Under the pieces are notes generated by a model. That model did not search any database. It saw only the letters and a program-made list of their open reading frames with translations, and was not told the origin of the DNA. 46,894 nt of DNA, taken from contig CAYZIY010000013.1 of assembly GCA_964478715.1 (NCBI GenBank), positions 1-46,894 on the forward strand. Reading direction: 5' to 3'. Position 1 is the stretch's first letter, and each line of letters opens with the position of its first letter. Below are positions 24,462-46,894 of this stretch, in pieces. The position numbers and the translations under genes were made by a program. This stretch comes from an uncultured Planctomycetales bacterium (GTDB taxonomy: Bacteria; Omnitrophota; Gorgyraeia; Zapsychrales; JBDRMG01).

Positions 24462-27012
24462 GAAACTCTATTCTTTTTTTTATTCTAAAAAAGCAAAGAA
24501 AACTTTGGCAGTTTTAGGCTTTTTGAGCATTTACTTATTCTGCCTCTTGTTACGTCTCTACCCTCTCTTCTCTTTCTCGGACTCCGACTCCTATGAAAAA
24601 GCCACTCTCTTAACAATCGCCCAATTAAAATCCCAGTCATTGGCCCAAGCCAGACAACAATTCGCTGAAGAATCCGGTGCGGATATAAAGCGACAGGCAA
24701 AAAAGATATTTGATCAACGATTGAAAGACGACAGCAATCGAGTGAAAGAAATTATTGATCAAAGAGCCCGCAAAATATTTCTTTCTAAAGGAGTTCGCCC
24801 CCGCCCCTATCTTTTGGCAGCCGATTCCTACAATTATTATGGATTGACAAAGAACCTTATTGAAACCGGAAATCTTAGCGAGACGATAAAGGGAAGTAAA
24901 TTCTTAAATAAAAAGATGCTAGCTCCTTTAGGTCACATGGAGCCCTTGAATGCCCACCCCTATCTAGGAGCCTATTTATTCCAAATGGTCAGATTTTTTT
25001 CACCAAAAGCTGATCTGATGTTTACGCTCTGCTTTATACCAGTAATTCTGACGATTCTTGGCTTCTGTGCTTTATTTTTCTGTGCTCGGTGTTACAATAT
25101 CAGGATACCTTTTATTATTATTTCCAGCTTCTTCCTATTTTTAGCACCCATTATCTTACGTCGAACCTCTTTCGGCTGGTATGATAATGATCCTTACAAT
25201 ATTATCTTTCCTTTTCTGATCCTGGGTCTCTATGCCAAAACTTTTTCTTCTCAAAGAAAATCCTTCCTATGGGCATTTGTTCTGTGTCTTTGCTTTAGTC
25301 TTTACTCTCTTTTCTGGCATGGATGGGGTTTGATTTTTGGGATCATCATCTTAAGCGGACTGATTCATCTGATTACTGAAATCCTGCTTCGCTCAGATCG
25401 CTCTTGCATCAAAAAGAACGGTCAATCCTTTGGTATTATTTTTTTGGGAACCTTTCTGGGTATTGGTCTTTTATTTGGATTCACGGAATTCTTTGTTCTT
25501 CTCGAAGAAGGATTAAGGGCTCTTAAGGACTTTCTGAATCCCGAACTGTCTTTGTGGCCTAATGTTTATTTCAATGTCGGCGAGCTTCATAGAATGCCTT
25601 TGGATCAATTAATCAGCCACTGTGGAGGATACCTGTTTTTCTTGATTGGCCTTTTTGCAGTTTTTGCTTGGCTCTATCAGTCGCTTATCGCAAAAAACAA
25701 TAAAGAACAACGGCTTCTCGTTCCGGCATTTATCCTTTATATCGTTCTCTTCGCTCTATCTTTAAAAGCGCAACGATTCAGTCTTTTGTTTGTGGTCCCG
25801 GCAGGAATCTTTTTTGCTTTAGGCCTGAATTTGATATGGAATTTTCTTATGAATCTTAAAAAGAATAAACCTTCAAAAAGAAAAATAGGATATTTTGGCC
25901 TTTGGGGAGTTTCCTGCCTTATCTTGATTGCATCAGCCATTCAAAGCGGAATGAAGGCTTATGCTACAATCTTTAACTGGCGCCCTATTGTCAATCAGAC
26001 CTGGGAAGAAGCCTTGCTAAAAATTAAAAACGATACCCCAGACAATAGTATAATTAATACTTGGTGGCCGCCGGGACATTTCATCACCTCTATGGCAGAT
26101 CGTCGAGTGACTTTTGATGGAGCCACAATTAATGTTCCACAGGCCTACTGGTTGAGCTGTTTTTTCTTAAATCAAGATGAAAAAGAAGCTCTGGGTATAT
26201 TAAGAATGTTAAATAATAGTGCCAATCAGGCCTCAGAACTACTGATGAACTCTGGCATTCCGATCGAGCGGGCCGTCAAACATCTTAAGGCCATTGTGCC
26301 TTTAAACAAAAAACAAGCAAGCCAATATTTACACAAACTTCCTTTAACCGGCAAACATATTCGACAACTCCTTGATTTAACTCACAAAAAGCCTCCCCCT
26401 TCCTATATTTTTCTCTACAAAGATCTCATTGAGAAAAATCTCGAATTAAGTTTTATTGCCCATTGGGATTTCAGAAAAGTTAGAGAAATCAATCAAGATC
26501 GCAATGCGCTAGAAGAGATTCCGCGTTCTGATCCAAAAAAATTTGTCCGCTACATCTGGAATAAATTGCTCACAGAAGCTCCCTTGAAATACTCAGAAAC
26601 TCTTGGGCAAATTCTCCGTGAAAGCAACAAAATCTACTTTCAGCAGGGAATCATGGTGGACTTAGGGCGGATGAGCGCGCGCATCAATTCCGAGAAATTT
26701 GGTCAAGGAATTCCTCAAATGTTAATTTTTCAAAAAGACGGCCAGCTGATTGAAAAACCGCTTGAAAACAGCAATCTCCCCGCAGCTATTGTTCTTTTAA
26801 AAAATGCTGCCGGTTATGAGTGCATACTAATGGACATCGCTCTAGCCCGTTCTCTTCTCATGAAACTGTATTATTTTCAAGGAGCCCACTGCAAATATTT
26901 GCGTCTTTTCAGTCATCATTCCAATCCAACGAAAAGAACCAAGATATTGATCTACGAAGTTTTATGGGATAAGTTTTTGGAGGACACTGCTAACAAGGTC
27001 ACTTCTTTTTAA
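24445..27012 (+). CDS. STT3/PglB/AglB-like oligosaccharyltransferase
   Basis: ADSYNY, GWYDND, VGEL and WWPPG...ADRRVTFDG motifs; about 13 TM helices plus a soluble C-terminal domain; start uncertain. Confidence 0.82.
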   Translation: MLTNAKKLYSFFYSKKAKKTLAVLGFLSIYLFCLLLRLYPLFSFSDSDSYEKATLLTIAQLKSQSLAQARQQFAEESGADIKRQAKKIFDQRLKDDSNRVKEIIDQRARKIFLSKGVRPRPYLLAADSYNYYGLTKNLIETGNLSETIKGSKFLNKKMLAPLGHMEPLNAHPYLGAYLFQMVRFFSPKADLMFTLCFIPVILTILGFCALFFCARCYNIRIPFIIISSFFLFLAPIILRRTSFGWYDNDPYNIIFPFLILGLYAKTFSSQRKSFLWAFVLCLCFSLYSLFWHGWGLIFGIIILSGLIHLITEILLRSDRSCIKKNGQSFGIIFLGTFLGIGLLFGFTEFFVLLEEGLRALKDFLNPELSLWPNVYFNVGELHRMPLDQLISHCGGYLFFLIGLFAVFAWLYQSLIAKNNKEQRLLVPAFILYIVLFALSLKAQRFSLLFVVPAGIFFALGLNLIWNFLMNLKKNKPSKRKIGYFGLWGVSCLILIASAIQSGMKAYATIFNWRPIVNQTWEEALLKIKNDTPDNSIINTWWPPGHFITSMADRRVTFDGATINVPQAYWLSCFFLNQDEKEALGILRMLNNSANQASELLMNSGIPIERAVKHLKAIVPLNKKQASQYLHKLPLTGKHIRQLLDLTHKKPPPSYIFLYKDLIEKNLELSFIAHWDFRKVREINQDRNALEEIPRSDPKKFVRYIWNKLLTEAPLKYSETLGQILRESNKIYFQQGIMVDLGRMSARINSEKFGQGIPQMLIFQKDGQLIEKPLENSNLPAAIVLLKNAAGYECILMDIALARSLLMKLYYFQGAHCKYLRLFSHHSNPTKRTKILIYEVLWDKFLEDTANKVTSF

Positions 27013-27917: not shown

Positions 27918-27922
27918 AATAT

Positions 27923-29014
27923 CTAATTTGCCCGTCCGGTTAAACGTTCAAAAAGACTCGACTTGGGAGGCTCAACCTCTTGTGATTTAGCAGACTCTTG
28001 GTTTGATTTCAATTTGATATTAGGGCGAAATCGTTCGGAAAGCTGTTGACCGGAACCGATCCGCCCGCTTCCGCCAGAAGACCCGCCTTGTTCTAAGTCC
28101 TGCCCACCCCTTTGATTGATTCCACCTGATTCCTCGCCACGACCACTTAAACCGCCTGATCCACCGGAACCAGCTGTCCTGCCACCTGATTCGCCAAAAC
28201 CTGTGCTGCCATCACCCGTTCCGCTAGCACCGACCCCATCACCAACACCACCGACATCACCTACGGCTCCTGCAGCACCTGCGACTTCCGCTTCTTCTTT
28301 TTGCAATCCTCCTGATTCTCCGGTGCTTCCACCTGATGTTCTAGATCCTACGGGACCACTGCCTGAATCCTGATCCCCCTGACTACTGCCTGATTCAAAA
28401 GTTTCATAGCCGATTTGAGTCTTGGCCATACCCTGCTCTAAAGCCAACGCTTGTTCTTCCGTCAAAATAGCATCGACCAGTATTTTTTTGACGGTCATCG
28501 CTGCCTTGACCTCTTCGGCGCTGGCTCTTTTCGGAGTAATATTCATTTTCACAACCTTAAGTAAATCATCTGAGGTATCTACTAAATATATAAACTTTGA
28601 AATACTTTCAAGCGTTCCGTCGCATTCCAAATTCGCGAAATATTCCAAGTAACCCAATTTTTCATAAAAATCGGCCGGATTCACCTTAATCAGAGTAACG
28701 CCGGCTTCACTGGCCAAACGTTCTATCCTCTCAAGAAAGTTAGCCACAATCTTCTCTTCTGTCAAATAAGAATTTGCATAATATTTACTGAACTCCCCGT
28801 TTTCTCTAAGAATCGTTTTTTTGTGAGACAAAAAACGTAAATCTCTGGCCATCAGTCTTTTTTGCTGCTCCATCTCCATATCAAGTTCGTTTAAACGAGC
28901 AGCAACCGGCCCCAGAAAGAGGCGATCAAAAAGAGCTAGTAAAACAAAACCTAGAGAAACATAAAGCAGCTTTTTCTCTTTCCCTGAAAGCTTTTCCATA
29001 AACTTCTGAATCAC
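27923..29014 (-). CDS. PilO/GspM-like protein with a Gly/Ser-rich disordered C-terminal tail
   Basis: LSGKEKKLL + TM + coiled coil + LASEAGVTLIKVNP and GTLESISKFIY; position after PilM/N. Confidence 0.75.
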   Translation of the reverse strand: MIQKFMEKLSGKEKKLLYVSLGFVLLALFDRLFLGPVAARLNELDMEMEQQKRLMARDLRFLSHKKTILRENGEFSKYYANSYLTEEKIVANFLERIERLASEAGVTLIKVNPADFYEKLGYLEYFANLECDGTLESISKFIYLVDTSDDLLKVVKMNITPKRASAEEVKAAMTVKKILVDAILTEEQALALEQGMAKTQIGYETFESGSSQGDQDSGSGPVGSRTSGGSTGESGGLQKEEAEVAGAAGAVGDVGGVGDGVGASGTGDGSTGFGESGGRTAGSGGSGGLSGRGEESGGINQRGGQDLEQGGSSGGSGRIGSGQQLSERFRPNIKLKSNQESAKSQEVEPPKSSLFERLTGRAN

Positions 29015-29052
29015 ATCGAACCCCTTAAATGATACAATATACTCATTGATTA

Positions 29053-30564
29053 TTATTCTTCATTTTCTTCTTTTGATCCTGACTCTACCTGCTCTTCTTC
29101 TAAGCCTTCATTTTCTTTGGTGCCTTCAAGACGTAAAGACATCTCAAATGCCGAAACATCTTTTCCTCTTTCCTTGGTTGCAGTTGTGGATGTTGTTTTT
29201 ACATTCTTGAAAAGCTCGGCATCTTCAAGCGGATCGACTAAAGAAAAAACTGTTGACATCGACTCGGAAGTCCCCTGTAGAATAATCTTTCCAGTTTCAT
29301 CGAGCGTAATGCTTTTAAAATAAATTTCGTTAGGAACAAGACGGTAGAGCTCATCCAGAATATCCAGAGCTGTCAATCGACTGTTAAGATAATCCTTAAT
29401 AATCAGTGTTTTATTAAAAACTTCTTCCAGTTCTTGAACTTCCTGCCGCTTGGGAGCATGTCGACGCTTGAGTTCATTCAGTGCGGAGCTCTTGAAATGA
29501 AGTTTGCTAATAAACATAAGAGAGAGACAGATTAAAAGAACAACCGAGAAGATCCCGCATTTAGCCACCTCTTTGCCTTGCTGCTCAATGGATTTTTTGA
29601 TCTTGATTTCCTCAGGAAGAAAATCCATTTGACAATCTTTGGCGTGTACCATCGGAGCGACAACGCTGAGGAAGGAACCTCCACCCAATTCCTCAATTTT
29701 CTCTTTGATATCTGAGCTCACCTTTAAATTATCAAGATAAGAGACAATATTAACTTCCGCTTGCAATTTATCTTTAAGTTGGGGCTGAAGTTCTTTGATT
29801 ATTTCATTGTCGCAAGTCAAAACATAAGATAAAGGCATCTGTTCAATGTCCTCGCTTCTATACGATTCAACAGAGCTTTTGAGCTCGTCCAATAGTTTAT
29901 TTCTGGCATTTTGAGCATCTTCCTCTAGCAACTTCATTCCCACAGGAATACTGCGGCATGCAATCACTTTGGACTGAAAAGCAATAGAGAAATCCGTTTC
30001 CTGATCAGAGATATCAATGATTCCCATCGGACCCTTAGCGGCCGATTCCGCGCAAACGTGGGAATACAAAAAGGAGATCGCTTCCGGAACAAGCAGAATC
30101 TTGTCCACTTCCAGGCCGACAGCTTCTAAAATATTTATCTGTTTCTTGATGCTGCTGCGGTTGATAATCACCAACAGAATCTTGGAATAATTTCTTTGAA
30201 AAACGCCGATGCTCAGATAGTCGATCACGATTTCTTCACGGGAAAACGGCGTATGCCTTCCGGCCTGGAGATTAATGATGGACTTGATTTCTTCGGGATT
30301 AACAGAAGGTATTTCGATATTTTTCGTCGTAGTGACGCTTGAGGGAATAGCGCAAATGGTACTGGCCTTTTTGACTTTAAAATCGGCCAGTATTGTTTTG
30401 ATAATCTTGGGAATCTCATCTTCCGGAAGACCCCTGATATCCCGGCTTGCAATATGCGCAACCTGATCTATGCCGGAAGAATTCTTGAGATGCGCTAGGC
30501 GCAGATTCTCATCCTCGATAGCCACACAAATTTTATCTTTTCCTACGTTAAGAAAATTCATCAA
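29053..30564 (-). CDS. PilM-PilN fusion (GspL-like)
   Basis: Actin-like N-terminal domain (IIDIS, RSIPVG), MDFLPEE linker, TM helix, PilN-like C-terminus (LVPNEIYFKSI, LQGTS). Confidence 0.82.
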   Translation of the reverse strand: MMNFLNVGKDKICVAIEDENLRLAHLKNSSGIDQVAHIASRDIRGLPEDEIPKIIKTILADFKVKKASTICAIPSSVTTTKNIEIPSVNPEEIKSIINLQAGRHTPFSREEIVIDYLSIGVFQRNYSKILLVIINRSSIKKQINILEAVGLEVDKILLVPEAISFLYSHVCAESAAKGPMGIIDISDQETDFSIAFQSKVIACRSIPVGMKLLEEDAQNARNKLLDELKSSVESYRSEDIEQMPLSYVLTCDNEIIKELQPQLKDKLQAEVNIVSYLDNLKVSSDIKEKIEELGGGSFLSVVAPMVHAKDCQMDFLPEEIKIKKSIEQQGKEVAKCGIFSVVLLICLSLMFISKLHFKSSALNELKRRHAPKRQEVQELEEVFNKTLIIKDYLNSRLTALDILDELYRLVPNEIYFKSITLDETGKIILQGTSESMSTVFSLVDPLEDAELFKNVKTTSTTATKERGKDVSAFEMSLRLEGTKENEGLEEEQVESGSKEENEE

Positions 30565-30584
30565 ATTACTCAGTTTTCTTCTTT

Positions 30585-31589
30585 TTAATCTTCCTGCCAG
30601 TAAACAATCTTTTTTTGAGATGCATCATAAATACAACGAATTTTGACACTCTCATTACTATTATAAAGTTTAGCATTGCTTTCGATAGAATAAAATTCAG
30701 ATTTCTCACTCAGCAAATCTTTTTCCATCAAACTGCGAATTTGTATTTCTTCTCTCTCGTTAAGCGGCTCCTCCTGCTGAATGAGCTCAATAATGGTTTC
30801 AGCACATGGAAAAACGATATCATCCCCCGTATAGTCAATTCCATCCGGCCCCCGGCGAATTCTTAAGATCTTATCGGCGACGTCGTGATCTAGCCCTAAG
30901 GCAATGAACACTGTTTTTTGAGCTGTATTGATATTTATTTTCCCGGAACCATAAACGGTTAAATATTTTAGCAACCGCGCAGAAACATCTTCAGTCACAC
31001 CCTTGACGAGCTTGAGTTCATCCGGAATTTCAAAAGGTTCATTTTTGGCCGGATACGGATACTCTAAATTATCATAAAAATCATCACTGAAGAACCCCAC
31101 AATCTCGCTTTCGCCTATTTCTCTCCAATCAATAATCGAATCGGCCAATCTGGTTGCCCTCACCTCATCATATTCCAGAATTAGCTTGATCAATCTTTTT
31201 AGGATATCCTTGGAAGCAACGTTGATATTAATTTTTCTTTCTTCGTCAATCAATCCATATTGTTTTGAGCCATTTTCGCTAACGGCAATACTTGCTTTGG
31301 CTCTAGGCGATGAAATATTCGAGAAATCCGATAAATTGCTATGGCGTATCATTTTACTGGGCACGGAATAGGAACCGCCATGAAAATCGTAATCCGCGTT
31401 TAAAATACCGATAGCTTTTCTGATCCCCGAAGCCGCACTTGTCTGCAAAATAGTTCTATTCTCAATCCGCTCAACAAATTTCAATTTCTGATGGATACTA
31501 AGTCCCATCGAAACAGCAAAAAGCGAAAGAACCACTAGTGTCCAAAGACTGAAAAAAAGAATTGTCCCTTTTTGATTCATCACCATCAA
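30585..31589 (-). CDS. gspK: Type II secretion minor pseudopilin GspK-like
   Basis: KGTILFFSLW N-terminus, DEERKININ, IIDWR, ELKLVKGVT and GKININTA motifs. Confidence 0.9.
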   Translation of the reverse strand: MMVMNQKGTILFFSLWTLVVLSLFAVSMGLSIHQKLKFVERIENRTILQTSAASGIRKAIGILNADYDFHGGSYSVPSKMIRHSNLSDFSNISSPRAKASIAVSENGSKQYGLIDEERKININVASKDILKRLIKLILEYDEVRATRLADSIIDWREIGESEIVGFFSDDFYDNLEYPYPAKNEPFEIPDELKLVKGVTEDVSARLLKYLTVYGSGKININTAQKTVFIALGLDHDVADKILRIRRGPDGIDYTGDDIVFPCAETIIELIQQEEPLNEREEIQIRSLMEKDLLSEKSEFYSIESNAKLYNSNESVKIRCIYDASQKKIVYWQED

Positions 31590-31597
31590 TCTTTTCT

Positions 31598-32224
31598 CTA
31601 TCCACCGACAGGAATGTCGAATATTCTCTCCATTTCTTGCTGTTTCTTTTCATCGTACGTCACGATAACTCGAAGTGTATGGGGAATGATACCTAAAGCC
31701 TCATCCTTCAGATGAAATTCCCCTTGATGATCATAAACATATTGAATCTTGAAAGACTTCACCGATGGCAACAAAATCCGCTCAGACTGAAACTTTTTTC
31801 TCAAAGCCTGCGCGTAATTAGCTTGGCGCCGAACAAGCTGATTTTTGTAAGGAAGAAACTGGTACTGAATCCGCCCGATCTGAGAAACATAGGAATCACG
31901 GGGTAAGCCCAACTTACGGTCTGCTTGGGTCGTCACAATGGCAGCAAATGAAATTCTTTCCGAAGTTCCCTCAAATGGAATTTGAGAATAATAAACCATC
32001 TTATTGAAATCCGAGCGCATCCTCTCTAAGCTAAGAACGATATCTTCTTCAAAAGTTATTTGATTACTTTTTTGCCAGATTTTCAGTCCATTATTGAATG
32101 CCTGAAAAACAGCCGAGCCGATTAAGGCAATCAATCCCGTAACCAGCATGGCTTCCATTAAAGTAAAGGCGCGAATATCGCTTCGCTTAAACAATGGGTT
32201 GAAAATTGCACGGCTTTTATTCAT
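31598..32224 (-). CDS. Minor pseudopilin, GspJ-like
   Basis: Prepilin motif RAFTLMEAMLV; located before gspK. Confidence 0.8.
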   Translation of the reverse strand: MNKSRAIFNPLFKRSDIRAFTLMEAMLVTGLIALIGSAVFQAFNNGLKIWQKSNQITFEEDIVLSLERMRSDFNKMVYYSQIPFEGTSERISFAAIVTTQADRKLGLPRDSYVSQIGRIQYQFLPYKNQLVRRQANYAQALRKKFQSERILLPSVKSFKIQYVYDHQGEFHLKDEALGIIPHTLRVIVTYDEKKQQEMERIFDIPVGG

Positions 32225-32621
32225 ACGGTATTATGATAGAATATTGCTGGAGTTTTTTCTGATACCGGCCTTCCCGCCAAGATATCTCGAGCATGAGTTC
32301 GAGAATACCTTCTTTCTGGCCAACATTTTTTATCGAGACATCATAGAGAAAATTAACTGGTGACCCGTCAATTGTTATTTGTTGAGCTTCTTGGGCAAAA
32401 GCTAAAGGAATTTCCTTAGATACCGCATAGACTTTGGCAATAGAAACAGCTCTGTTCTGGAGAAGCTGAAAAGCTTGGAGTCTATAATTAATATGACGGG
32501 CCGTATGAAGAGAGATAAAAAATGAGCGGTAAATCGATGTGATTCCGAAAGCCAAAATAGCAACAGCCACCATCAGTTCAAAGAATGTGAGGCCCTTATG
32601 ATCATCTTTTTCAAATTTCAT
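32217..32621 (-). CDS. Minor pseudopilin, GspI/PilV-like
   Basis: Prepilin motif KGLTFFELMVAVAILAFG; short length. Confidence 0.8.
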   Translation of the reverse strand: MKFEKDDHKGLTFFELMVAVAILAFGITSIYRSFFISLHTARHINYRLQAFQLLQNRAVSIAKVYAVSKEIPLAFAQEAQQITIDGSPVNFLYDVSIKNVGQKEGILELMLEISWREGRYQKKLQQYSIIIPYE

Positions 32622-32630: not shown

Positions 32631-33086
32631 TTAACTCTTTCCCCAATTCGTAATATCATCTTCGCTGGTTGTCTCGTCGCGTCCTTTGGAATAAAGATCA
32701 TAATCGGCCCTGTTTTCACCGGGTGAAACATATTGATAGGGGCGTCCCCAGGGATCGATTGGCTCACGCTCCGAATAGGGACCATTCCAATTGGAAGGAA
32801 TGGGGCTGTTTGAAGGTTTCTTGAGTAAGGCCTTCAATCCTTGGCTCGTCGTAGGGAAGAAACCATTATCCAATTCATACAGTTTTAAAGCTGTTGCGAT
32901 ATTATTCTTGATATCCGCTTCAGCAGCTGCCCGTTTTGCCTGCTCAGAACGGCCGGTCAGTCGAGGAATCACCATAGCGGCCAAAGCCCCGATGATAACA
33001 ACAACCAGCATAATTTCAATTAAAGTAAAAGCCTTATTTGGGAATCTTGAAAATGATTTTTTCTTCTTTTGAATTTCTAAGCTCAT
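32631..33086 (-). CDS. gspG: Major pseudopilin GspG
   Basis: AFTLIEIMLVVVIIG, ALKLYELDNG, NWNGPY and DPWGRPYQY; start moved to ATG 33086 after SD AGGAGG. Confidence 0.95.
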   Translation of the reverse strand: MSLEIQKKKKSFSRFPNKAFTLIEIMLVVVIIGALAAMVIPRLTGRSEQAKRAAAEADIKNNIATALKLYELDNGFFPTTSQGLKALLKKPSNSPIPSNWNGPYSEREPIDPWGRPYQYVSPGENRADYDLYSKGRDETTSEDDITNWGKS

Positions 33087-33096: not shown

Positions 33097-33903
33097 TTAA
33101 TGCAATAAATAATTGCTCCATCTCTGCTGAAGCTCTTCAATAGACTTCGCGCCTGAAGGATAGGCGATGCGTAAAGCCTCTTCAAAATTTCTTCCGTCTC
33201 TTAATTGCCGGCATAAACGTTTAAAGGCACTGCGCCCATACTTTGTAATCAAAAACTCGACAATCGAAACGCTTTGGGCGTAAAACAAGGCAACAATATC
33301 CTGATTGTTCTGCTGGTATACATTCATCGAAAACAAAGTCTTTAAAGGAAGCTGCCTGTTCTGCTTGACAACGCTTTTCATCAATTGACGAGCCATTATT
33401 AGCCTACTTTCTTGCTGCAATTGGGCCACCCCTTCATCAAACCATACGGGAATAGGTTTGTCAAATCCGATAAAATCCCTGAGGATCAGATGGCTGATTT
33501 CATGCGGCAATAATCCCTTAATGAAATCTTCCTCCTGACGATATGTCACAATTAATCGACTTTGGAATAATTTTGAGTGACTGCTAGAATAGCCCCGAGA
33601 CCAAAGAGGCTGCCCTGTTTTTTCTGCAAACTGCTTTTGATTCTTAAAAATAATGATTTTCACACGCTCATTCCATGTCCAAAAATTGGTATAGCGCGAA
33701 TAGCCAATCTGAGACGCAATGGATCTGTAATATTTCTCGGCTTGACGAAGAATTTTTCTTGCCGTTTGGCTGTCCTCTTTATAAGAATAGAAAACGGCAA
33801 AATGATCACTTTTCTCCTGAAGCCACCCGGAAGCAAAAGCCGTTCCTTCATGATAAACATAGAGAAGCAATAAACACAATACCAGGAAAATCTTTTTGAG
33901 CAT
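33097..33903 (-). CDS. Exported gluzincin (peptidase MA-like) metallopeptidase
   Basis: Signal peptide from ATG 33903; HEISH plus WFDEGVAQ; FYAQSVSIVEFL. Confidence 0.85.
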   Translation of the reverse strand: MLKKIFLVLCLLLLYVYHEGTAFASGWLQEKSDHFAVFYSYKEDSQTARKILRQAEKYYRSIASQIGYSRYTNFWTWNERVKIIIFKNQKQFAEKTGQPLWSRGYSSSHSKLFQSRLIVTYRQEEDFIKGLLPHEISHLILRDFIGFDKPIPVWFDEGVAQLQQESRLIMARQLMKSVVKQNRQLPLKTLFSMNVYQQNNQDIVALFYAQSVSIVEFLITKYGRSAFKRLCRQLRDGRNFEEALRIAYPSGAKSIEELQQRWSNYLLH

Positions 33904-33907
33904 AGGG

Positions 33908-35119
33908 CTATCGTCCGGCCAGCAAATCCATTTGAAAAATCGGCAACAACATGGCCATGACCATGAAACCAACAATCAAGCCGATCGTCAAAATAAGAAC
34001 GGGCTCCAAAAGCGCGGTAAGCGTCTTCAGTGATTCCTCGATATCCTGCTCATAAGTTAAAGCAATATCGGCAAGTGTTTCCTCCAGCGATCCAGACTCC
34101 TCGCCAACGATAATCATATGGCTAATGAGAATCGGAACCACGGAAATATTTTTCAGACTTTCCCCAAACGAAGAGCCGGATTCGAGATTCTCCATACCTT
34201 TACGTATGTTTGCTCTAATCACATTGTTATGAATAGTAGCGGAAGCTATCGATATCGCTTTCAATAAAGGCGCACCGCTTCTAAGAAGAAGTTCGAGAGT
34301 CTTAGAGAACCGGGATATTTCTGTCTTTTTGATTAATTGTCCGAAAAGCGGGACAGTAAGCAAAAACCGATGGAACAATAATCTTCCGGAATTTGTCTTG
34401 GCCCATTTGATCAAAAAGAGGACAGCAAAGAAGATCCCTAAACTGATGACAATCCAATAATCGCGTATTCCTTGACTGAGAGTAATCATGATACGGGTTG
34501 CCAAAGGAAGCTGTTGATCTATCTGTGAGAAAAGCGGCATCACCCGTGGCATTACATTAGTTAAAATAAATATTACTGTAGCAATTCCCACAAAAAGCAT
34601 CAAAAGAGGATAAGCTAAAGCGACGCGCACTTTTGAGTAAATCTCGTCCTGGGATTTGAGATGGGCAGATATCCTCTGAATCATCTCGGATAATTGCCCT
34701 CCCTCCTCACCGGCCTGAACCATAGCAATGTAAAGCGTTGAAAAGACTCGGGGATATTGACTGAGACAATCGGAAAGATTATAACCATCTTTGATCTTAG
34801 CGCTAACATCAGCCAATATTCTCTTCAAATCATTATTTTGAGTTTGTTGCGATAAAAGATGAAAGGCTTTTAAGATGGGGACACCGGTCTTAAGAAGATT
34901 GGCCAGCTGGCGACTCATCAGATAAGTTTCTTTCAAAGACACTCTCTCTGACCTAAAAATCCTTCGAGATCTTGTTTTGAACTGCTCCTCCTGTACCGAT
35001 AAAGGCGTTAGCCCCATATGATTAATAATATCAATTGCCTCTTCTTTGTTTTGAGCTTCCAAGCGACCTTCTTTGATTTCTGTTGAACCTTTTTTAGCTT
35101 TGTATAAAAAAGACGGCAT
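33908..35119 (-). CDS. gspF: Type II secretion inner-membrane platform protein GspF/PilC
   Basis: RQLANLLKTGVPI, AGEEGGQL, ALAYP, GEESGSL and LLEP motifs. Confidence 0.95.
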   Translation of the reverse strand: MPSFLYKAKKGSTEIKEGRLEAQNKEEAIDIINHMGLTPLSVQEEQFKTRSRRIFRSERVSLKETYLMSRQLANLLKTGVPILKAFHLLSQQTQNNDLKRILADVSAKIKDGYNLSDCLSQYPRVFSTLYIAMVQAGEEGGQLSEMIQRISAHLKSQDEIYSKVRVALAYPLLMLFVGIATVIFILTNVMPRVMPLFSQIDQQLPLATRIMITLSQGIRDYWIVISLGIFFAVLFLIKWAKTNSGRLLFHRFLLTVPLFGQLIKKTEISRFSKTLELLLRSGAPLLKAISIASATIHNNVIRANIRKGMENLESGSSFGESLKNISVVPILISHMIIVGEESGSLEETLADIALTYEQDIEESLKTLTALLEPVLILTIGLIVGFMVMAMLLPIFQMDLLAGR

Positions 35120-37365: not shown

Positions 37366-39742
<2,377 letters not shown>

Positions 39743-39757: not shown

Positions 39758-40501
39758 TTATGCGCCTTCAATCTTATCTTTCTTTCTAGTGGAGGCCTCG
39801 ATGATCAGATTTTTGATGCTCCCGTCCAGAGCTAAACTGCCGAATTTTAACATGATTCCGGCGACCATTTGCTTATCCGTTGTAGCGCTAACTGTAATTG
39901 ATCTACCCAGCTTTTTTTCAATAATATCGAAAATCCTTTGATTGATCGATTCGTCAAGAGATCCTGCGGTCACAATCTCAACGGTTTTAACATCTGAAGA
40001 AATTTGTTTCATATCCACATTTTCCAGATCCTTGATAAATTCCTCCCATAATCTTTCCTCCAAAATACCGCGCGCTTCTTCGCTTAATATCTCGCATAAG
40101 ATTTCGGAGGCAAAGGTAACCGTCTTAATCTCAATCTCTTTTTCAATATCTTTGCGGATTTGATCCTTGGTTCTTTGGGCTTTGTCGATAATCTCCTCAC
40201 CCTCGTTCCGGGCCTTTTGAATCATCTGCGCACGTTCTTCTTTAGCTTTTTCATTAGCCTCATCGATCATCTTTTTGGCTAACTCTTCCGCTTCTTTGCG
40301 GCGCTTCTCCAGCTCTTCATTGGCTTCTTTAATTTTGCGATCCAGTTCGGCCTGTTTGGCACGCGCTTCTTCAGTCTCCTTATTCAAACGTTGAACCGCT
40401 CCTTCGGTACTTGAAAAAAAGACTTGCTTCATGACAAAAATAATCACTCCAAAAACAACTGTCTGTAAAACAAAAATTTTGATAAGAAGCATCCAGTTCA
40501 T
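39758..40501 (-). CDS. Fo subunit b fused to the delta/OSCP C-terminal domain
   Basis: N-terminal TM helix, long charged coiled coil, then VEIVTAGSL...MVAGIMLKFGSLALDGSIK. Confidence 0.85.
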   Translation of the reverse strand: MNWMLLIKIFVLQTVVFGVIIFVMKQVFFSSTEGAVQRLNKETEEARAKQAELDRKIKEANEELEKRRKEAEELAKKMIDEANEKAKEERAQMIQKARNEGEEIIDKAQRTKDQIRKDIEKEIEIKTVTFASEILCEILSEEARGILEERLWEEFIKDLENVDMKQISSDVKTVEIVTAGSLDESINQRIFDIIEKKLGRSITVSATTDKQMVAGIMLKFGSLALDGSIKNLIIEASTRKKDKIEGA

Positions 40502-40532
40502 CGTATCCCTTTCTGATTTTTTCTTTCATTCA

Positions 40533-40775
40533 TTATTCGGCATACGTCTCAAGCATATGATAAAAAATAAGCAAAAGACCAAAGCTGATCACTTCGACAA
40601 AAACTAATTTGAGAAAAATCCCAGTTTGAATGGCCGGAGTCTTGCTCGGATAATAAGATAATTTCTTTAGCATCTTGTATCCTAAAATAGCCGCCGCTGT
40701 GCAGGGAATTGCAATCATGATAAAGATAATCGTGATCAGGGTCAGTCCGGTTTGTAGAGTTTCGCTTTGCTCCAT
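40533..40775 (-). CDS. Second, divergent c-subunit-like hairpin protein
   Basis: Aligns without gaps to the neighbouring c subunit (P..A.LGY..K.L...PS...I..G...L.FVE.IS). Confidence 0.7.
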   Translation of the reverse strand: MEQSETLQTGLTLITIIFIMIAIPCTAAAILGYKMLKKLSYYPSKTPAIQTGIFLKLVFVEVISFGLLLIFYHMLETYAE

Positions 40776-40781
40776 TTGAGT

Positions 40782-41003
40782 CTACCTTCCAAAAAGCTGA
40801 AAGATAATGAGAATGGCAACGATGGAAATCGCCTCAACGAAAATCAAAAGAACAATCATTCCCATAAAAATCTTGGACGCGGCCGAAGGATTCCTTCCCA
40901 AGGCTTTTATAACCGAATAGCCCAAAACCGCAATGACCATCGATGGCCCCATAACGGCAATAAACATGATCGCAATAATAATAAAGGTTTCGGCTAATCT
41001 CAT
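40782..41003 (-). CDS. atpE: Fo subunit c (divergent)
   Basis: 73-aa two-TM hairpin, GRNP loop, conserved Glu in FVEAI. Confidence 0.88.
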   Translation of the reverse strand: MRLAETFIIIAIMFIAVMGPSMVIAVLGYSVIKALGRNPSAASKIFMGMIVLLIFVEAISIVAILIIFQLFGR

Positions 41004-41009
41004 AATTTG

Positions 41010-41342
41010 CTAAACTTCCCCTTGCTCATCATCTTCTTTACCAAAAACCATATCTTCTTCTTTCCCCTCTTTTTCTTTCTTTTCTCTTTCTTCCTGCTCG
41101 ATCAGAACGATACAATCATTGGCAAAAAATCTTAAGATACCGACCTTGACAGGAACAGCATGCCGCCAGTTAATAATAATCTTGCTGTTCAACTGCAAAA
41201 TACCGATCACCGGATAGTGATAGGGCAAAATCTCATATTCTCCCTCATCGCCGGTAATAAACAAAGAATGAACCTCGTTTTCATAAACAAGACTGTCGGG
41301 CGTCATAATAGTGCATTTGAATGTTCCTTTATAGCGCGCCAT
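41010..41342 (-). CDS. atpC: F1 epsilon subunit (beta-sandwich domain only, with an acidic tail)
   Basis: IMTPDSLVYENEV, GDEGEYEILPYHYPVIGIL motifs. Confidence 0.85.
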   Translation of the reverse strand: MARYKGTFKCTIMTPDSLVYENEVHSLFITGDEGEYEILPYHYPVIGILQLNSKIIINWRHAVPVKVGILRFFANDCIVLIEQEEREKKEKEGKEEDMVFGKEDDEQGEV

Positions 41343-41353
41343 TGTTACAGACC

Positions 41354-42904
41354 TCAGGTCTTGACATCCTCTTTCTTACTCGTGGCTTGATCAAGAGCAT
41401 CCTGCCCCACCATATCATCTTCTGATTCATCCTCTTCTTCTTTGGGCCGCTTGGCCTGAACATCTTTGAGATACTGAGTGCAAAGATCTTCCATCTCCTT
41501 GGCAATATCATCGTCCAATTTTTTCTTCTCTCTCAAATTTTTAATTAATTCAGGATTTTTCTGATTGGCAAAATCAAGAATCTCCAGCTGAAATTTCTTA
41601 ACTTCGTCTCCGCTCATCTCCAGAAGAATCTTTTTGTTGTAGGCAAAAAGAGTCAAGGCAAGAACATCCAAAGAAACCGGAGAATCTTTATCCTGACGAA
41701 TGATTTCAGTTAGAATCTCACCGATTTTCATTTGCTGCTGCTGGCCTTCGCTTTGTCCGGATGTTTTCAGTCGGGAGACTCGAAGAAGCTCGCGGTATTG
41801 GATATAGTCCAGTCGCAAAGAGCCCGATAACTTTTTGACGATAGGCCACTGCACCTTGCTTCCCACGCGTGAAACCGAAAGGCCCAAGTCTACAGCCGGT
41901 TTTTGCCCTTCACCGAAAAGGGGAGTGCTTAAATAGATTTGCCCATCGGTCATGGAAACAAGATTCGAAGGAATGTATCCGGTTAAATCCCCCTCTAAAA
42001 GCTCAACGATCGGGAAAAACGTGATGGAGCCACCCCCGCGCTCTTTATCCATAAAAGCCGCACGCTCAATCATTTTCGAGTGCAGATAAAAAATGTCTCC
42101 CGGATACGAGTCGCGACCCGGAGGACGCGCCAGCAATAGGGAAATCTCCCTGTAACACCAGGCATGCTTGGTGAAATCGTCAAAGCCGATAAAGACATGT
42201 TTTCCCTGGTTCATCAAATGCTCAGCAATGGAACAGGAAACGTAGGGAGCCAGATACTGCTGTCCAGGAGGAGCAGAAGCGGGTGCCGAAACAATCATCG
42301 AATATTCAAAACAACCGTTATCCTGAAAAAGCTGAACAACCTTGGCTAAAGCGCTTCGGGCTTTCCCGATACAGCAATAGATGCAGTAAACATCCGTGTT
42401 TTTTTGATTCAGAATCGTATCGGTCACAATGGTAGTTTTTCCGGTCATCTTATCACCAAGAATCAACTCGCGCTGACCGAGCCCGACGGGAATCATGGTA
42501 TCCAAAACCTTAATGCCCGTTTCCAGAGTTTTGCATAAGGGCTCGCGTGCCAAGATGGGAGGAGCATCAATAAAAACCGGAGCCATTTTGTCCCATTCCA
42601 AACGACCCAAACCATCCAAGGTCTCGCCTAAAGGATTGATGATGCGTCCGATAAGTTTATTACCCACAGGAACATAAAAAGGTTCCAGCGATGCAACCGC
42701 CTTATCGCCTGTTTTAATATTCTCGGTTTCTTTAACAATAAGAACCTGGGCTTCCTTTTCATCAAATCCAATGATCTGCCCTAAAGTTCCGTATCCAAAT
42801 TTAATCAACTGGCCGCTTAAACAATGCTTGAATCCCGTCACAATGACAATACAACCCCGGATACAGCGAACACGCCCAATTTCTGTATATCGTAAATCAC
42901 CCAT
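41354..42904 (-). CDS. atpA: Divergent F1-type ATPase alpha subunit
   Basis: GQRELILGDKMTGKT, RPPGRDSYPGDIFYLHS, TDGQIYL and SVSRVG motifs; SD GGAGG. Confidence 0.95.
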   Translation of the reverse strand: MGDLRYTEIGRVRCIRGCIVIVTGFKHCLSGQLIKFGYGTLGQIIGFDEKEAQVLIVKETENIKTGDKAVASLEPFYVPVGNKLIGRIINPLGETLDGLGRLEWDKMAPVFIDAPPILAREPLCKTLETGIKVLDTMIPVGLGQRELILGDKMTGKTTIVTDTILNQKNTDVYCIYCCIGKARSALAKVVQLFQDNGCFEYSMIVSAPASAPPGQQYLAPYVSCSIAEHLMNQGKHVFIGFDDFTKHAWCYREISLLLARPPGRDSYPGDIFYLHSKMIERAAFMDKERGGGSITFFPIVELLEGDLTGYIPSNLVSMTDGQIYLSTPLFGEGQKPAVDLGLSVSRVGSKVQWPIVKKLSGSLRLDYIQYRELLRVSRLKTSGQSEGQQQQMKIGEILTEIIRQDKDSPVSLDVLALTLFAYNKKILLEMSGDEVKKFQLEILDFANQKNPELIKNLREKKKLDDDIAKEMEDLCTQYLKDVQAKRPKEEEDESEDDMVGQDALDQATSKKEDVKT

Positions 42905-42924
42905 TTTGAAAAACCTCCAAGGTC

Positions 42925-42933
42925 ATTATATCA
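42925..42933 (-). promoter_or_regulatory. Possible extended -10 promoter ahead of atpA
   Basis: TGA-TATAAT in the 92-bp gap; no good -35 box. Confidence 0.4.
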
Positions 42934-42996
42934 AAACCAAATTTCAGAAATACGATAAAAATGACCATTTTGATGAAGCAATCATTTTTTGTATTT

Positions 42997-44388
42997 CTAA
43001 GACTCTTCCTTCCCCTCGCCTTCGGGATTTTCGGCCGGTTTGATTTCTTCTATGGTTCCCCCTGTACTTATGGCTATCTCCTCCCCCATAACGCGGGCTT
43101 TTTTCCACCATGTGAAAAAGTGAACAATCGTAATAACAGCTACAAAAATAAGAATGCCCCAGATAATACGCCAAGTATGTGTTAAGGTCGGCTTCTTACC
43201 GAATATTGCTTCGGAAAGAGAGGCGATACCGCGTAAAGCCTTTAATTTTTGCAGAATATTTTTTACTTTGCTTTTTTCCAACTCTTCTAACTTCTTAGCC
43301 TTGACGCGAGCGAGCATTAGCTCGATCTTCTCAATCTCCAGACTAATCTCTTCAAATCGATGCCGATTAATGCGAAAGGCGCCGATATATTTTCGCATAT
43401 TAGCTTTAGTTTCCTGCGATTCTCTAATAGCATTGAGTAGGCTAAAAATTTTATTCCCGATAAACTGAGCTCCCGCTTCGTATTCGGAACCCTTGATTTC
43501 TTCGAGAGCGCGTTCAGTTCGCTCAGCCATCGAATCGACCTTGTCAAGAGAAATGCTCCAAATATCTTTCATCCGAATGGTATATTTTCTCGTCTCACCA
43601 GGTTGAAATTCTTCTTCCTTAAGAAGATAGGATTGCTGTCGATCTTCATCCCATCGAACATCAAAACCCTGGCTATCCAAAATATGCTCAGACCGTATTT
43701 CTTTTGGAAGGTAATGTTTCTGCGTGATCATTCTGGTCTCTTTTTGAGAAGGATTTTTAACTTCAATAATAAAATTCACAGATTCCTGTGTCACCTCCCT
43801 GATACGCTCGGAGGTAAAGTATTCAAAAGAAAAAGCATTTTTCCGAATTTGATCGATATCAGCCAAATAAGCCCGGTATTCTTCAATCCGACGATTGATA
43901 TCCTCAGAATAACCCTGCTGCTGACTCAAAACATAATCAAGTTTGTTCATCATCTTCTCGCCAATCATTTGGGCGGACTCAAAATACTCGGTACCTTCCA
44001 GCTGTCGGATATTCTCTTCAATCTGTCCCCTGATAATATCAATTTCCTCCTGAGGAATTCTCCAGACATCGCGCACTTCCACTTTGATCTTTTTGGATTC
44101 TTTGGGCTTTAAGGTAACGGTCCCTTTGAGAAAATATCGCGACTGGTCGATATCGTAATCCAGCGAAAGAGGCCCGGCATTGACAATATCTTTCGGATCC
44201 AATTCTCGGGGAAGATAATATTTCACAGATGTTTCTTTTTCTTGGGTCTCGCTGGGATTAACCGCCACAAAATTAATAAAGATATTCTGGGCATAACATT
44301 TCGATGAAGAAATAGCAAATAATACATACAGTGCTATTGATAAAAAAATGGATTTCTTGATAAAATGAAATAAAATTCCTTGATTCAT
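42997..44388 (-). CDS. Exported protein with a C-terminal membrane anchor, built of two ~170-aa repeats
   Basis: Signal peptide; NPS..YLP.E...D(V/I)W.I...G(T/S)EY..AQ.IG.K occurs twice; TM helix TWRIIWGILIFVAVITIVHFFTWW. Confidence 0.8.
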   Translation of the reverse strand: MNQGILFHFIKKSIFLSIALYVLFAISSSKCYAQNIFINFVAVNPSETQEKETSVKYYLPRELDPKDIVNAGPLSLDYDIDQSRYFLKGTVTLKPKESKKIKVEVRDVWRIPQEEIDIIRGQIEENIRQLEGTEYFESAQMIGEKMMNKLDYVLSQQQGYSEDINRRIEEYRAYLADIDQIRKNAFSFEYFTSERIREVTQESVNFIIEVKNPSQKETRMITQKHYLPKEIRSEHILDSQGFDVRWDEDRQQSYLLKEEEFQPGETRKYTIRMKDIWSISLDKVDSMAERTERALEEIKGSEYEAGAQFIGNKIFSLLNAIRESQETKANMRKYIGAFRINRHRFEEISLEIEKIELMLARVKAKKLEELEKSKVKNILQKLKALRGIASLSEAIFGKKPTLTHTWRIIWGILIFVAVITIVHFFTWWKKARVMGEEIAISTGGTIEEIKPAENPEGEGKEES

Positions 44389-44421
44389 TTCTGCCGTCCT
44401 GTTAAATATCCTATTTAATAC

Positions 44422-46894: not shown

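Follow-up and report, generated by a model that had tools for sequence, protein, structure and literature searches.

An F-type ATPase without subunit a is encoded inside a T2SS operon of an Omnitrophota genome, and the ATPase, the T2SS genes, the gene for a giant secreted repeat protein (rep) and that for a 463-residue membrane protein (p463) travel as one unit across the phylum. The enzyme is an extra one, carried beside a housekeeping V/A- or F-type ATPase. The window, 46,894 nucleotides in length, is an entire contig (C13) and contains the downstream two thirds of a supra-operon that occurs across Omnitrophota.

Positions 27009-46894 carry 19 co-oriented genes on the minus strand (Table 1). 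Gene calls and profile searches confirm the order given by an earlier sequence-only reading: rep, p463, alpha, epsilon, c1, c2, b-delta, gamma, beta, gspE, gspF, a Peptidase_MA_2 gene, gspG, I, J, K, a PilM-PilN fusion, a PilO-like gene and a TPR gene. As that reading also had it, the ATPase genes are flanked by the repeat protein on one side and T2SS/pseudopilus genes on the other, beta (atpD) lies 15 bp from gspE, and all gaps but one are below 40 bp, measuring 33, 92, 11, 6, 6, 31, 15, 25, 15 and 5 bp from rep on. Past the 5-bp gap between gspE and gspF there are small gaps or overlaps only. Promoter-like sites (51 in 27000-46894, against 41.0 +/- 7.2 in shuffled sequences) and terminator-like sites (15, against 18.5 +/- 4.6) gave no signal; as neither is commoner than in shuffles, the operon structure is putative. 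The sequencing runs carrying the stretch are three DNA runs of one study, with no RNA run among them.

Table 1. Genes of the block, from rep onward, with the principal evidence for each assignment.
Gene or product	Position	Strand	Evidence or remark
rep, giant secreted repeat protein, 3' part, 823 aa	44422..46894	-	5' end open; 5' part on C24
p463, 463-aa bitopic protein	42997..44388	-	AF2 model, pLDDT 88.7; no Pfam or NCBIfam family
alpha, F-type	41354..42904	-	PF00006 2.5e-68; TIGR00962 499.4 vs cut-off 484.45
epsilon, short, 110 aa	41010..41342	-	PF02823, 37.9 vs 27, residues 8-82 only
c1, c-ring subunit	40782..41003	-	PF00137 29.9 vs cut-off 24
c2, divergent c1 paralogue	40533..40775	-	hhalign to c1 98.2%, E 5.7e-14, 71 columns
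b-delta fusion, peripheral stalk	39758..40501	-	OSCP 38.1 bits (cut-off 22.3), ATP-synt_B 25.3 bits
gamma, F-type, divergent	38891..39742	-	PF00231 114.7 vs 39.9; TIGR01146 89.1 vs 194.45
beta, F-type	37366..38865	-	TIGR01039 526.4 vs cut-off 462.85
gspE/PilB-type ATPase	35125..37350	-	start 15 bp past beta stop codon; GspE 582.3 vs 630.25, PilB 574.1 vs 675.65
gspF, platform protein	33908..35119	-	T2SSF 3.7e-56; GspF 377.5 vs 424
Peptidase_MA_2, secreted HExxH zinc peptidase	33097..33903	-	profile search
GspG, major pseudopilin	32631..33086	-	TIGR01710 153 vs cut-off 88.85 (T2SS equivalog passed)
minor pseudopilin, GspI position	32217..32621	-	prepilin N-methylation motif only
minor pseudopilin, GspJ-like	31598..32224	-	weak T2SSJ match, 20.8 vs cut-off 28
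GspK, minor pseudopilin	30585..31580	-	T2SSK_1st 47.6 vs 26.2
PilM-PilN fusion, GspL architecture	29053..30561	-	PilM_2 56.8, PilN 50.1
PilO/GspM-like, long Gly/Ser-rich C-terminal tail	27923..29014	-	PilO 20.9 vs 22; GspM 29.8 vs 60
TPR protein with signal peptide, final gene of block	27009..27917	-	profile search

Since the window is the whole of its contig, rep is truncated where the contig stops. Upstream, the locus carries on in contig C24, which ends in the same repeats and holds the 5' part of rep. Over the two contigs the full order opens with an ExeA-like AAA protein, a gspC-like gene, a secretin gene (gspD), a TPR gene and two genes for FGE-domain proteins; rep, p463, the seven ATPase genes and then gspE onward follow. 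With the extension onto C24, cargo and ATPase are thus seen to interrupt a T2SS operon that is otherwise ordinary: 12 foreign genes (TPR, two FGE-domain genes, rep, p463 and the seven ATPase genes) separate its gspD from its gspE.

As in a canonical T2SS (gspC-M), the secretion genes comprise gspC-like, D, E, F, G, I, J, K, GspL-like and GspM-like members in the usual order, here with the ExeA-like protein upstream. The Pfam models T2SSE, T2SSF and Secretin are all clearly matched, whereas most components fall under the NCBI equivalog cut-offs; the secretin on C24, for example, scores 258.1 against 351.35 for GspD and 274.9 against 284.35 for PilQ, and the gspC-like gene is a weak match to GspC (26.9 against 27). 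Further departures from the canonical system, besides the intervening genes, are an N-terminal MshEN and a C-terminal PilZ domain on GspE, both of c-di-GMP-binding families, and the lack of a GspH recognizable by profile search among the block genes. A prepilin peptidase is encoded elsewhere in the genome.

Every ATPase subunit except a is named by Pfam and NCBIfam models, apart from c2, which is identified by its alignment to c1 and has no Pfam or NCBIfam match. Gamma, epsilon, c, b and delta are present by Pfam, all far below their NCBIfam equivalog cut-offs. Alpha has the Walker A sequence GDKMTGKT and the arginine-finger motif SVSRVG; beta, which starts with a low-complexity extension of about 40 residues, has the Walker A sequence GGAGCGKT, GERIRE, DNLFRF and a further ten-residue motif. 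Conservation is at least 95% for Walker A, GERxRE, DNxFRF and YVPADD in beta (79 aligned rows) and for SVSRVG in alpha (62 rows). Judged from these motifs, alpha and beta are catalytically intact, and selection acts on catalytic and rotor features. For the rotor, c1 keeps its RNP loop and TM1 Pro20 in 69 of 69 rows and TM2 Glu57 in 64 of 69. The paralogue c2 is missing the R-N of the loop, has a less conserved Glu61 (37 of 48 rows), and is absent from deeper branches, where c1 abuts b-delta in seven loci. In the b-delta fusion a membrane helix at the N-terminus leads via a coiled coil into an OSCP-like domain at the C-terminus; its best full-length match is the N-ATPase b subunit model TIGR03321 (61.8 bits, cut-off 224.7). 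Epsilon is an N-terminal beta-sandwich followed by an acidic tail, with conservation ending near residue 82; neither profile search nor alignment found the C-terminal helical domain, whose helices inhibit hydrolysis in bacterial F-ATPases.

Subunit a is absent, as the sequence-only reading had claimed. PF00119 has no match at E <= 1 across the 2.10-Mb, 94.6%-complete genome; none was found within the cluster or in 80 related loci, and the gaps in the cluster are too small for a polytopic protein of 200 residues. The same genome encodes a separate rotary ATPase in a complete V/A-type operon (E, DUF2764, A, B, D, I, K) on contig C7, which, together with the distinct alpha and beta clades described below, supports the view that the F-type enzyme is not the housekeeping ATP synthase. 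In four of the five genomes of relatives compared, the PF00119 gene is well removed from the cluster and is found 2.4 kb from a canonical alpha/beta pair distinct from the one described here. Among the genomes of the same order that were listed, at least 13 (90-98% complete) have this type of beta and no PF00119, with a single beta gene in 11 of the 13; all 30 with both this beta type and PF00119 have at least two beta genes; and at least eight have PF00119 and canonical-level beta only. Among the loci examined, no homologs of this ATPase unlinked to gsp genes came to light, and in this genome it is neither the sole rotary ATPase nor accompanied by an atpB elsewhere.

The two partners encoded just before alpha are unusual proteins. 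The windowed part of rep consists of 13-residue G-I-N-W-x-D repeats, with 36 G[IVL]NW motifs, and a helical C-terminal domain of about 230 residues that ends in a conserved VVVK(T/S)(W/Y)FES motif. The protein has a signal peptide, and its ortholog in a relative (G001) is an open frame of 8091 residues. An AF2 model of the last 430 residues gives the C-terminal helices at pLDDT 70-94; helix-turn units for the repeats, at a pLDDT of only about 52, are too weak for a fold to be called. A match to Ntox33 (PF15533), at E 1.1e-21 with no single stretch passing, is taken as driven by the repeats and not as evidence of a toxin domain. The p463 protein starts with a signal peptide; the AF2 model shows two tandem modules, each a beta-sandwich plus a three-helix bundle, and a helix of 66 residues, and the protein ends with a membrane helix and a short tail in the cytoplasm. 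No match was found in Pfam or NCBIfam, matches in the ESM Atlas are to Omnitrophota hypothetical clusters only, and p463 thus looks specific to Omnitrophota by sequence. Foldseek comparison of the model with the PDB returned nothing at E <= 0.001; VIA-align wide found generic three-helix-bundle matches only (Z up to 10.2, residues 274-369), with the beta-sandwich parts barely covered. The gene precedes alpha in 58 loci. When residues 33-400 of p463 and the C-terminal 270 residues of rep, both with alignments of 51 rows, were put through complex prediction, the score was 0.14 against a mark of 0.32, a value that counts neither for nor against their contact.

All 80 species-level loci retain the gene order for as far as their contigs extend, and in none of the loci examined is the link to gsp genes broken. 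Recurrence in every one of these loci from other species shows that the layout is not due to chance, although the 80 do not amount to 80 independent events, as they come from one phylum and synteny is partly inherited. Next after beta is gspE in all 76 loci with both genes, at a median gap of 5 bp; Peptidase_MA_2 is found in 46 of the 61 loci with both gspF and gspG; and all six genomes with a readable upstream half retain it (gspC-like, secretin, TPR, as a rule two FGE genes, rep). Contig C4 of genome G472 does not enter this count, as the block of that genome is on a different contig. Whole blocks also occur as paralogs within one genome, two in G226 and three in G405. One variant, the type II block, has the ATPase order epsilon, c, b-delta, alpha, gamma, beta between the same flanks; subunit a is again absent, c2 is missing, epsilon is about 80 residues long, and the TM2 Glu is kept in all three type II c subunits.

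In phylogenetic trees the alpha subunits group in a single clade (support 99), as do the beta subunits (support 95), both apart from canonical and N-type enzymes; the canonical clades (support 96 and 100) take in four Omnitrophota canonical operons. The Mycoplasma Type 3 alpha joins the Omnitrophota alpha clade as a weakly supported sister (SH-aLRT 81, end branch 3.41), in a tree without E. coli alpha, whose frame is incomplete in the record, and without Mycoplasma Type 2 sequences; Type 3 beta is unplaced in its tree.

The sequence-only reading had doubted its own novelty, and rightly: the gene layout is already noted in print for Omnitrophota. Passages of Seymour et al. 2023 (PMC10066038) describe non-respiratory "symbiotic" F-type ATPase genes beside type-4a pilus clusters across the phylum, in every class, co-located within 10 kb on 57 of 66 contigs; they report within-phylum transfer and repeated loss, propose that the locus serves to attach to host cells or to move on them, and liken the genes to Mycoplasma type 2/3 ATPases. 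The present locus belongs among these, with an Omnitrophota genome, an alpha outside the respiratory clade and type IV filament genes within 10 kb. The filament label there is T4aP, whereas GspG here passes the T2SS equivalog cut-off. The main-text passages of that paper mention neither a missing subunit a nor a retained c-ring and b-delta, a gspD/gspE position, rep and p463 as partners, or paralogous blocks, and the supplements may hold more; the term "c-ring" occurs 0 times in its main text. Literature searches for an F-ATPase joined to type IV filament genes found only this paper, and "ATP synthase" occurs 0 times in West-Roberts 2023. Literature searches turned up no printed mention of the absence of subunit a, of a c-ring and stalk kept nonetheless, of the gspD/gspE location or of the fibre and p463 as partners.

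Three other systems are comparable in part. Like the block described here, the Mycoplasma Type 2 and Type 3 F1-like X0 ATPases, as presented in passages of Beven et al. 2012 (PMC3369863) and Berlureau et al. 2026 (PMC12994834), are extra F1-type alpha/beta/gamma/epsilon sets beside a genuine ATP synthase, have no subunit a, and have their genes beside those of a surface system that requires them (MIB-MIP; for Type 2, gliding); the requirement for Type 3 is reported in the latter paper (PMC12994834). The Mycoplasma clusters, of which that for Type 3 was fetched for a comparison of gene content, differ in having seven genes with no c, b or delta and three unrelated "X0" proteins, where Omnitrophota keeps c-ring and stalk. 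Four Mycoplasma-specific NCBIfam models (MMOB1660/1670, MSC_0619/0618) were not reached (396.5 vs 600, 428.2 vs 850, 292 vs 520 and 404.1 vs 570), alpha and beta scoring higher on canonical atpA/atpD, and among the 60 matches listed the M. mobile G1 beta (9io5_A) stands below every canonical F1 beta. The N-ATPase is a second, laterally mobile F-type operon beside a housekeeping enzyme (Dibrova et al. 2010, PMC2881411, as far as its passages go). It shares with the present block a single long b and no separate delta, b-delta here matching the N-type b model over its full length. Unlike it, two fetched N-ATPase operons have subunit a and an AtpZ/AtpI-family gene, in the order beta, epsilon, two small genes (the first of the AtpZ/AtpI family), a, c, b, alpha, gamma. 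Scores for alpha and beta fall below the N-type (alt_F1F0) cut-offs (477.6 vs 750.5; 456.8 vs 752), and both lie outside the N-type clade. The canonical F1Fo ATP synthase is approached in that alpha and beta exceed its equivalog cut-offs; the differences are the absence of subunit a, the separate clade, and the fusion of b and delta.

On the strength of sequence and gene context, we find it rather likely that the complex hydrolyses ATP as a rotary motor and works together with the T2SS-like machine and the giant fibre of the latter. The sequence-only reading had likewise put forward an ATP-hydrolysing motor tied to a pseudopilus or to export of a giant protein; its linkage to gsp genes and its non-housekeeping status hold, while rotation and coupling are what we infer from gene content and synteny. 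On this proposal the F-type enzyme would run in the direction of hydrolysis, with F1 rotating gamma-epsilon together with the c-ring in the inner membrane; b-delta would be the stator, and there would be no path for ions. The torque or conformational work would be taken up by the same envelope-spanning apparatus, which would move the giant fibre through its dedicated secretin and put it to work at the cell surface, probably so that the bacterium can attach to host or prey cells or move on them. Given the two c-di-GMP-binding domains of GspE, the process may be under c-di-GMP control. Several points count against the proposal: the TM2 Glu of c1 would have no obvious use in an ion-free rotor, its retention hinting at an ion-coupled step with another partner; neither a stator partner nor a load came to light, the p463 membrane helix being poorly conserved and its Arg not conserved; the synteny within one phylum is partly inherited; and a T2SS already has its own ATPase in GspE, which calls into question the need for a second motor.

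A rival reading is that the complex is still an ion-coupled F-type ATPase or synthase, in which a non-homologous or very divergent membrane protein replaces subunit a and supplies half-channels and the counter-charge for the c-ring Glu. The Glu (conserved likewise in type II), the invariant RNP loop and the scores of alpha and beta above the canonical atpA/atpD cut-offs would all suit it. Yet the block offers no polytopic candidate, its other membrane proteins being GspF, single-helix proteins and c2, and c2 is itself missing in the seven deeper loci and in type II blocks. The p463 membrane helix was considered as a replacement and rejected: it is poorly conserved and has no conserved charge, its boundary Arg being conserved in less than half of 52 rows. 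The genomes (at least 13 of those listed) that bear the block without PF00119, the lack of a visible C-terminal domain in epsilon, and the presence of a housekeeping rotary ATPase in all six genomes inspected (G000-G005) weigh the same way, and we regard ion coupling as unlikely. Slightly less likely, in our judgment, is an analogy to FliI-FliJ, which acts in type III export: F1 would drive no external load by rotation but would be the ATPase that exports or assembles the giant protein or the pseudopilus, with c-ring and b-delta only as membrane anchor or conduit. FliI/SctN models are indeed the next-best NCBIfam matches behind the F-type models, and the block does encode a very large Sec-dependent cargo and a secretin. 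An export ATPase would, however, have no need of the full conserved set of rotor and stator (gamma, epsilon, c, b-delta); alpha keeps its non-catalytic identity, which makes the head a hetero-hexamer of the alpha3beta3 type; and rep has a signal peptide, so that the cargo would cross the inner membrane by Sec.

The adjacency might also be historical only, reflecting one insertion of an accessory F-type operon into a T2SS locus in an Omnitrophota ancestor, then inherited with no functional link. Shared ancestry can explain much of the synteny, as all loci come from one phylum, and the unremarkable counts of promoter- and terminator-like sites are in keeping with it. We nevertheless give this account little credence: the linkage has outlasted divergence to 55-60% beta identity, duplication (two or three blocks in one genome) and a changed order of the ATPase genes themselves, the intergenic gaps are a few bp, and co-location on those 57 of 66 contigs persists despite transfer and repeated loss (Seymour et al., PMC10066038, main-text passages).

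A more specific form of the motor proposal, in which the block would encode a bacterial rotary machine of a kind not yet characterized, is doubtful, and we offer it as speculation. The F1-driven c-ring without an ion channel would be an ATP-powered rotor in the inner membrane, passing torque to the periplasm via p463, and would wind, spin or ratchet a fibre of up to about 575 repeats delivered through the dedicated secretin by the T2SS pseudopilus. With its signal peptide, a sizeable outer domain, a single membrane helix at the C-terminus and a short tail, p463 has the topology of Ac45 and Voa1, which sit inside V-ATPase c-rings. If this were true, ultrasmall Omnitrophota would own an ATP-driven grappling or gliding organelle for prey contact. 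Being compact (seven genes plus p463) and widespread, the complex is tractable for expression and cryo-EM.

Omnitrophota are ultrasmall, probably predatory or parasitic bacteria. Pathway surveys enter this alpha/beta pair under "F1Fo ATP synthase", and the energy metabolism of the phylum may be mis-scored as a result; passages of a 2026 preprint (10.64898/2026.06.07.730766) give alpha and beta in 125 of 176 genomes and gamma in only 30 of 176. The observation of wider interest is that a complete rotor and stalk are kept under strong selection without an ion channel, and always within a secretion operon that also encodes a giant fibre, whereas rotary ATPases are usually taken for converters of energy coupled to ions. 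Tested parallels are limited to the F1-like systems of Mycoplasma, which are much more degenerate. If the coupling is real, F-type rotation driven by ATP would do mechanical work at the cell envelope.

Gene calls and profile searches place 19 genes, all on the minus strand, in a run from 46894 to 27009 of the window. The window spans all of contig C13 of a genome (G000; 2.10 Mb in 43 contigs, 94.6% complete) whose assignment to Omnitrophota is given by the taxon names of beta homologues and of related loci. The close packing described in the sequence-only reading was recovered with the ORF starts as listed: alpha is preceded by a gap of 92 bp, gspE starts 15 bp after beta, and no other gap exceeds 38 bp. 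The second c-ring-type subunit, c2, found no match in the family libraries searched, and is a paralogue of the first, c1 (hhalign 98.2%, E 5.7e-14).

Features of the locus and its surroundings, in window coordinates unless another contig of G000 is named
Feature	Position	Strand	Remarks
AAA_22 (ExeA-like), GspC-like, secretin	C24	+	first in order
TPR, then two FGE-sulfatase-domain proteins	C24; FGE pair at G000:C24:17391-20787 (L104 8392-11788)	+	after secretin; FGE proteins adjacent, about 550-590 aa
rep (giant 13-residue-repeat protein), 5' part	C24	+	922 codons; signal peptide, Ig-like region, then repeats
rep	44422-46894	-	open-ended repeat protein, start of block
p463 (463-aa anchored protein), alpha, epsilon, c1, c2, b-delta fusion, gamma, beta	after rep	-	F-type set
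gamma	38891-39742	-	F-type
GspE-type ATPase	after beta	-	carries MshEN and PilZ domains
GspF, then Peptidase_MA_2 protein	after GspE	-	block order
GspG and three minor pseudopilins		-	GspK clear, GspJ weak, one by methylation motif only
PilM-PilN fusion, PilO/GspM-like, TPR	end of block	-	block order
STT3/PglB-type oligosaccharyltransferase, 855 aa	24445-27012	+	converges on TPR end of block
Xanthine-dehydrogenase-family molybdoenzyme set	2318-9572	+	FAD, 2Fe-2S and MoCo subunits; with XdhC and cyclophilin genes; looks ordinary
691-aa protein	12078-14153	-	cyclic-nucleotide-binding domain and patatin-like phospholipase
PAS histidine kinase, response regulator	14866-17224		near patatin-like gene
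V/A-type ATPase operon	G000:C7:33949-41046 (L006 6949-14046)		DUF2764 protein replaces subunit C

The contig breaks within rep in most MAGs, and contig C24 of G000 ends in the same repeats as the rep of the window. The upstream gene order on C24 is shared by G001, G002, G004, G471 and G005, and so is found in all six readable genomes. From C24 and the order in these relatives, rep, p463 and the ATPase genes lie between gspD and gspE, inserted in a T2SS whose gene order is otherwise ordinary. The block of the sequence-only reading is present in the window as described, and forms part of a wider locus that continues on C24 past the contig end. Directly upstream of rep, the pair of FGE-sulfatase (PF03781) genes is kept in five of the six genomes and is absent from the upstream half in G005. 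The PF03781 domain also occurs in the gliding/T9SS lipoproteins GldJ and GldK; the NCBIfam models for GldJ and GldK do not match the FGE proteins, and a connection is only a lead. As a whole, this 2.1 Mb genome encodes seven secretins, seven full-length GspE/PilB-type ATPases, five shorter T2SSE-family matches and one prepilin peptidase locus only, with filament-machine genes on C1, C2, C4, C5, C6, C20 and C24, a commitment to type IV filament machinery that is unusually large.

The ATPase is obligately linked to the T2SS set, the giant secreted repeat protein and p463. The synteny that the sequence-only reading had proposed to check was examined in 80 loci, each from the genome of a different species and with a beta 58-89% identical to that of the window. 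Detected genes follow the window order in all 80, as far as each contig extends, one departure being a stray gamma-like match in L083. Beta is followed by gspE in every one of the 76 loci containing the two genes, at a median gap of 5 bp (no more than 50 bp in 76% of the 76, with starts crudely assigned). In 58 loci p463 lies ahead of alpha. A rep-like frame adjoins alpha in L036, with no p463 match. The Peptidase_MA_2 gene occurs in 46 of 61 loci with both gspF and gspG. Seven deeper loci are missing c2, and there c1 and b-delta are 10-19 bp apart.

Two genomes carry more than one block, G226 with two and G405 with three. Three of these five blocks, designated type II (L109, G226:C14; L112, G405:C17; L113, G405:C4), run rep, p463, epsilon, c, b-delta, alpha, gamma, beta, then gspE onward. 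They contain neither subunit a nor c2; their epsilon is about 80 aa, and the Glu of c is retained. This ATPase order is the canonical one without subunit a and with epsilon shifted to the front, and may be the older arrangement. A second gene order together with multiple blocks indicates that the partnership outlasts duplication and internal rearrangement, and this survival is the strongest argument in the analysis for a functional unit.

The F-type ATPase of the block looks catalytically active, judging from its retained residues. Beta keeps the motifs [20 protein letters not shown] and [10 protein letters not shown], alpha retains GDKMTGKT and SVSRVG, and the catalytic-motif columns are at least 95% conserved across 79 beta and 62 alpha sequences. 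Both subunits reach the canonical NCBI cut-offs for atpA and atpD, and fall below those set for N-ATPases and for each of the four models specific to Mycoplasma. Epsilon, at 110 aa, has the N-terminal sandwich as its only matched domain. The RNP loop of c1 is invariant (69/69), the TM2 Glu is present in 64 of 69 c1 sequences, and the Glu of c2 is present in 37 of 48. Subunit a is absent: PF00119 has no match at E <= 1 across the G000 genome, while the same search was positive in nine control genomes, and the genes are packed too tightly to leave space in the block for an unrecognised polytopic protein. Gamma scores 89.1 bits against a TIGR01146 cut-off of 194.45, so that strict KO or HMM thresholds would miss it. 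This low score may account for a count given in a preprint for complete Omnitrophota genomes, in which alpha and beta were reported in 125 of 176 and gamma in 30 of 176 (10.64898/2026.06.07.730766).

The block enzyme is a second one. G000 has a complete V/A-type operon on C7, a separate rotary ATPase of the sort the sequence-only reading had thought worth seeking; the third PF00006 match in the genome, on C9, is Rho. Subunit I of the C7 operon is a 588-aa protein with a weak V_ATPase_I match (29.3 bits vs 30.7). PF00119 is present in four of five block-carrying relatives. In each of the four it lies at a distance of 2.4 kb from canonical alpha and beta genes that form a separate pair; in G001 it is 455 kb away from the block. 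The remaining relative resembles G000 in having a V-type pair. A census of the same order covered genomes listed in both the beta and the PF00119 searches (eleven more PF00119-negative genomes fall outside these rows). Among the genomes listed, 13 that are 90-98% complete have block-type beta without PF00119, 11 of them with a single beta gene; 30 have block-type beta with PF00119, each with two or more beta genes; eight have PF00119 and solely canonical-level beta; and three have neither block-type beta nor PF00119. Subunit a thus tracks the canonical enzyme and not the block enzyme, which is accessory to a housekeeping ATPase.

A joint alpha and beta tree of 67 rows (quick IQ-TREE, LG+C20) included the window with 22 of the 80 loci, hand-picked to cover identities of 58-84%, four canonical operons of Omnitrophota, E. 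coli (beta only), M. hyorhinis, Fusobacterium, Subdoligranulum, two N-type operons and one Mycoplasmopsis cluster of the Type 3, or F1-like, ATPase. Measured against these F, N and Mycoplasma types, as the sequence-only reading had suggested, block alpha forms one clade (support 99) and block beta another (95). Neither groups with the N-type pairs or with the clades of canonical enzymes (96, 100). The attachment of Type 3 alpha to block alpha is weak (support 81, end branch 3.41), which may be long-branch attraction, and Type 3 beta has no supported placement. The alpha result reproduces a Mycoplasma link already printed by Seymour et al. (PMC10066038). In PDB searches with alpha and beta, the top scores go to canonical F1 subunits. 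Among the 60 matches listed, every canonical beta ranks above M. mobile G1 beta (9io5_A), which scores 341.7 bits.

In G001, rep is read as an open frame of 8091 aa. It contains 459 G[IVL]NW motifs, and 358 of the 458 intervals between them measure 13 residues. Lengths vary from 871 to about 8100 aa (L071, L092, L088); rep is short in G471 (871 aa) and G005 (1332 aa), where repeat collapse in assembly may contribute. The last 230 residues are helical, and the extreme C-terminus is conserved. Because MAG contigs mostly break in rep, giant-gene surveys of short-read MAGs will undercount it. The predicted structure of p463 is of good confidence (pLDDT 88.7). It has a signal peptide and two modules, each made of a beta-sandwich and a three-helix bundle; these are followed by a helix of 66 residues, then by a membrane helix with a tail. 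The protein has no family and no informative fold match in the libraries and fold searches used, and its relatives were found only in Omnitrophota. Glycosylation of the rep fibre is a lead and not a finding. Thirteen related loci have an oligosaccharyltransferase homologue downstream, in convergent orientation in 12 (most loci stop earlier), GT2 glycosyltransferase genes occur upstream on C24, and 11 of the 36 window repeats of rep contain an N-W-S/T sequon.

The locus type itself is already in the literature. Seymour et al. 2023 reported non-respiratory F-type ATPase genes adjoining T4aP clusters. They recorded them from every class, Velamenicoccia contributing 56 of its 111 species, found co-location within 10 kb on 57 of 66 contigs, and put forward a role in attachment or motility (PMC10066038). 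West-Roberts et al. 2023 tied giant genes to T2SS-like loci, in a text that, as far as it was available, leaves ATP synthase unmentioned. In the published texts consulted, supplements aside, we did not find the missing subunit a with retained c-ring and stalk, the position of the ATPase between gspD and gspE, its fixed partnership with a 13-residue-repeat fibre and p463, or the paralogous blocks. The observation stands and is of biological interest, but the block adds one more member to a locus type known from print. The ATPase of the block would hydrolyse ATP, with gamma-epsilon and the c-ring turning against b-delta and no ions moved; this rotary work may serve an apparatus that exports or operates the rep fibre, and GspE, through its MshEN and PilZ domains, would link the system to c-di-GMP.
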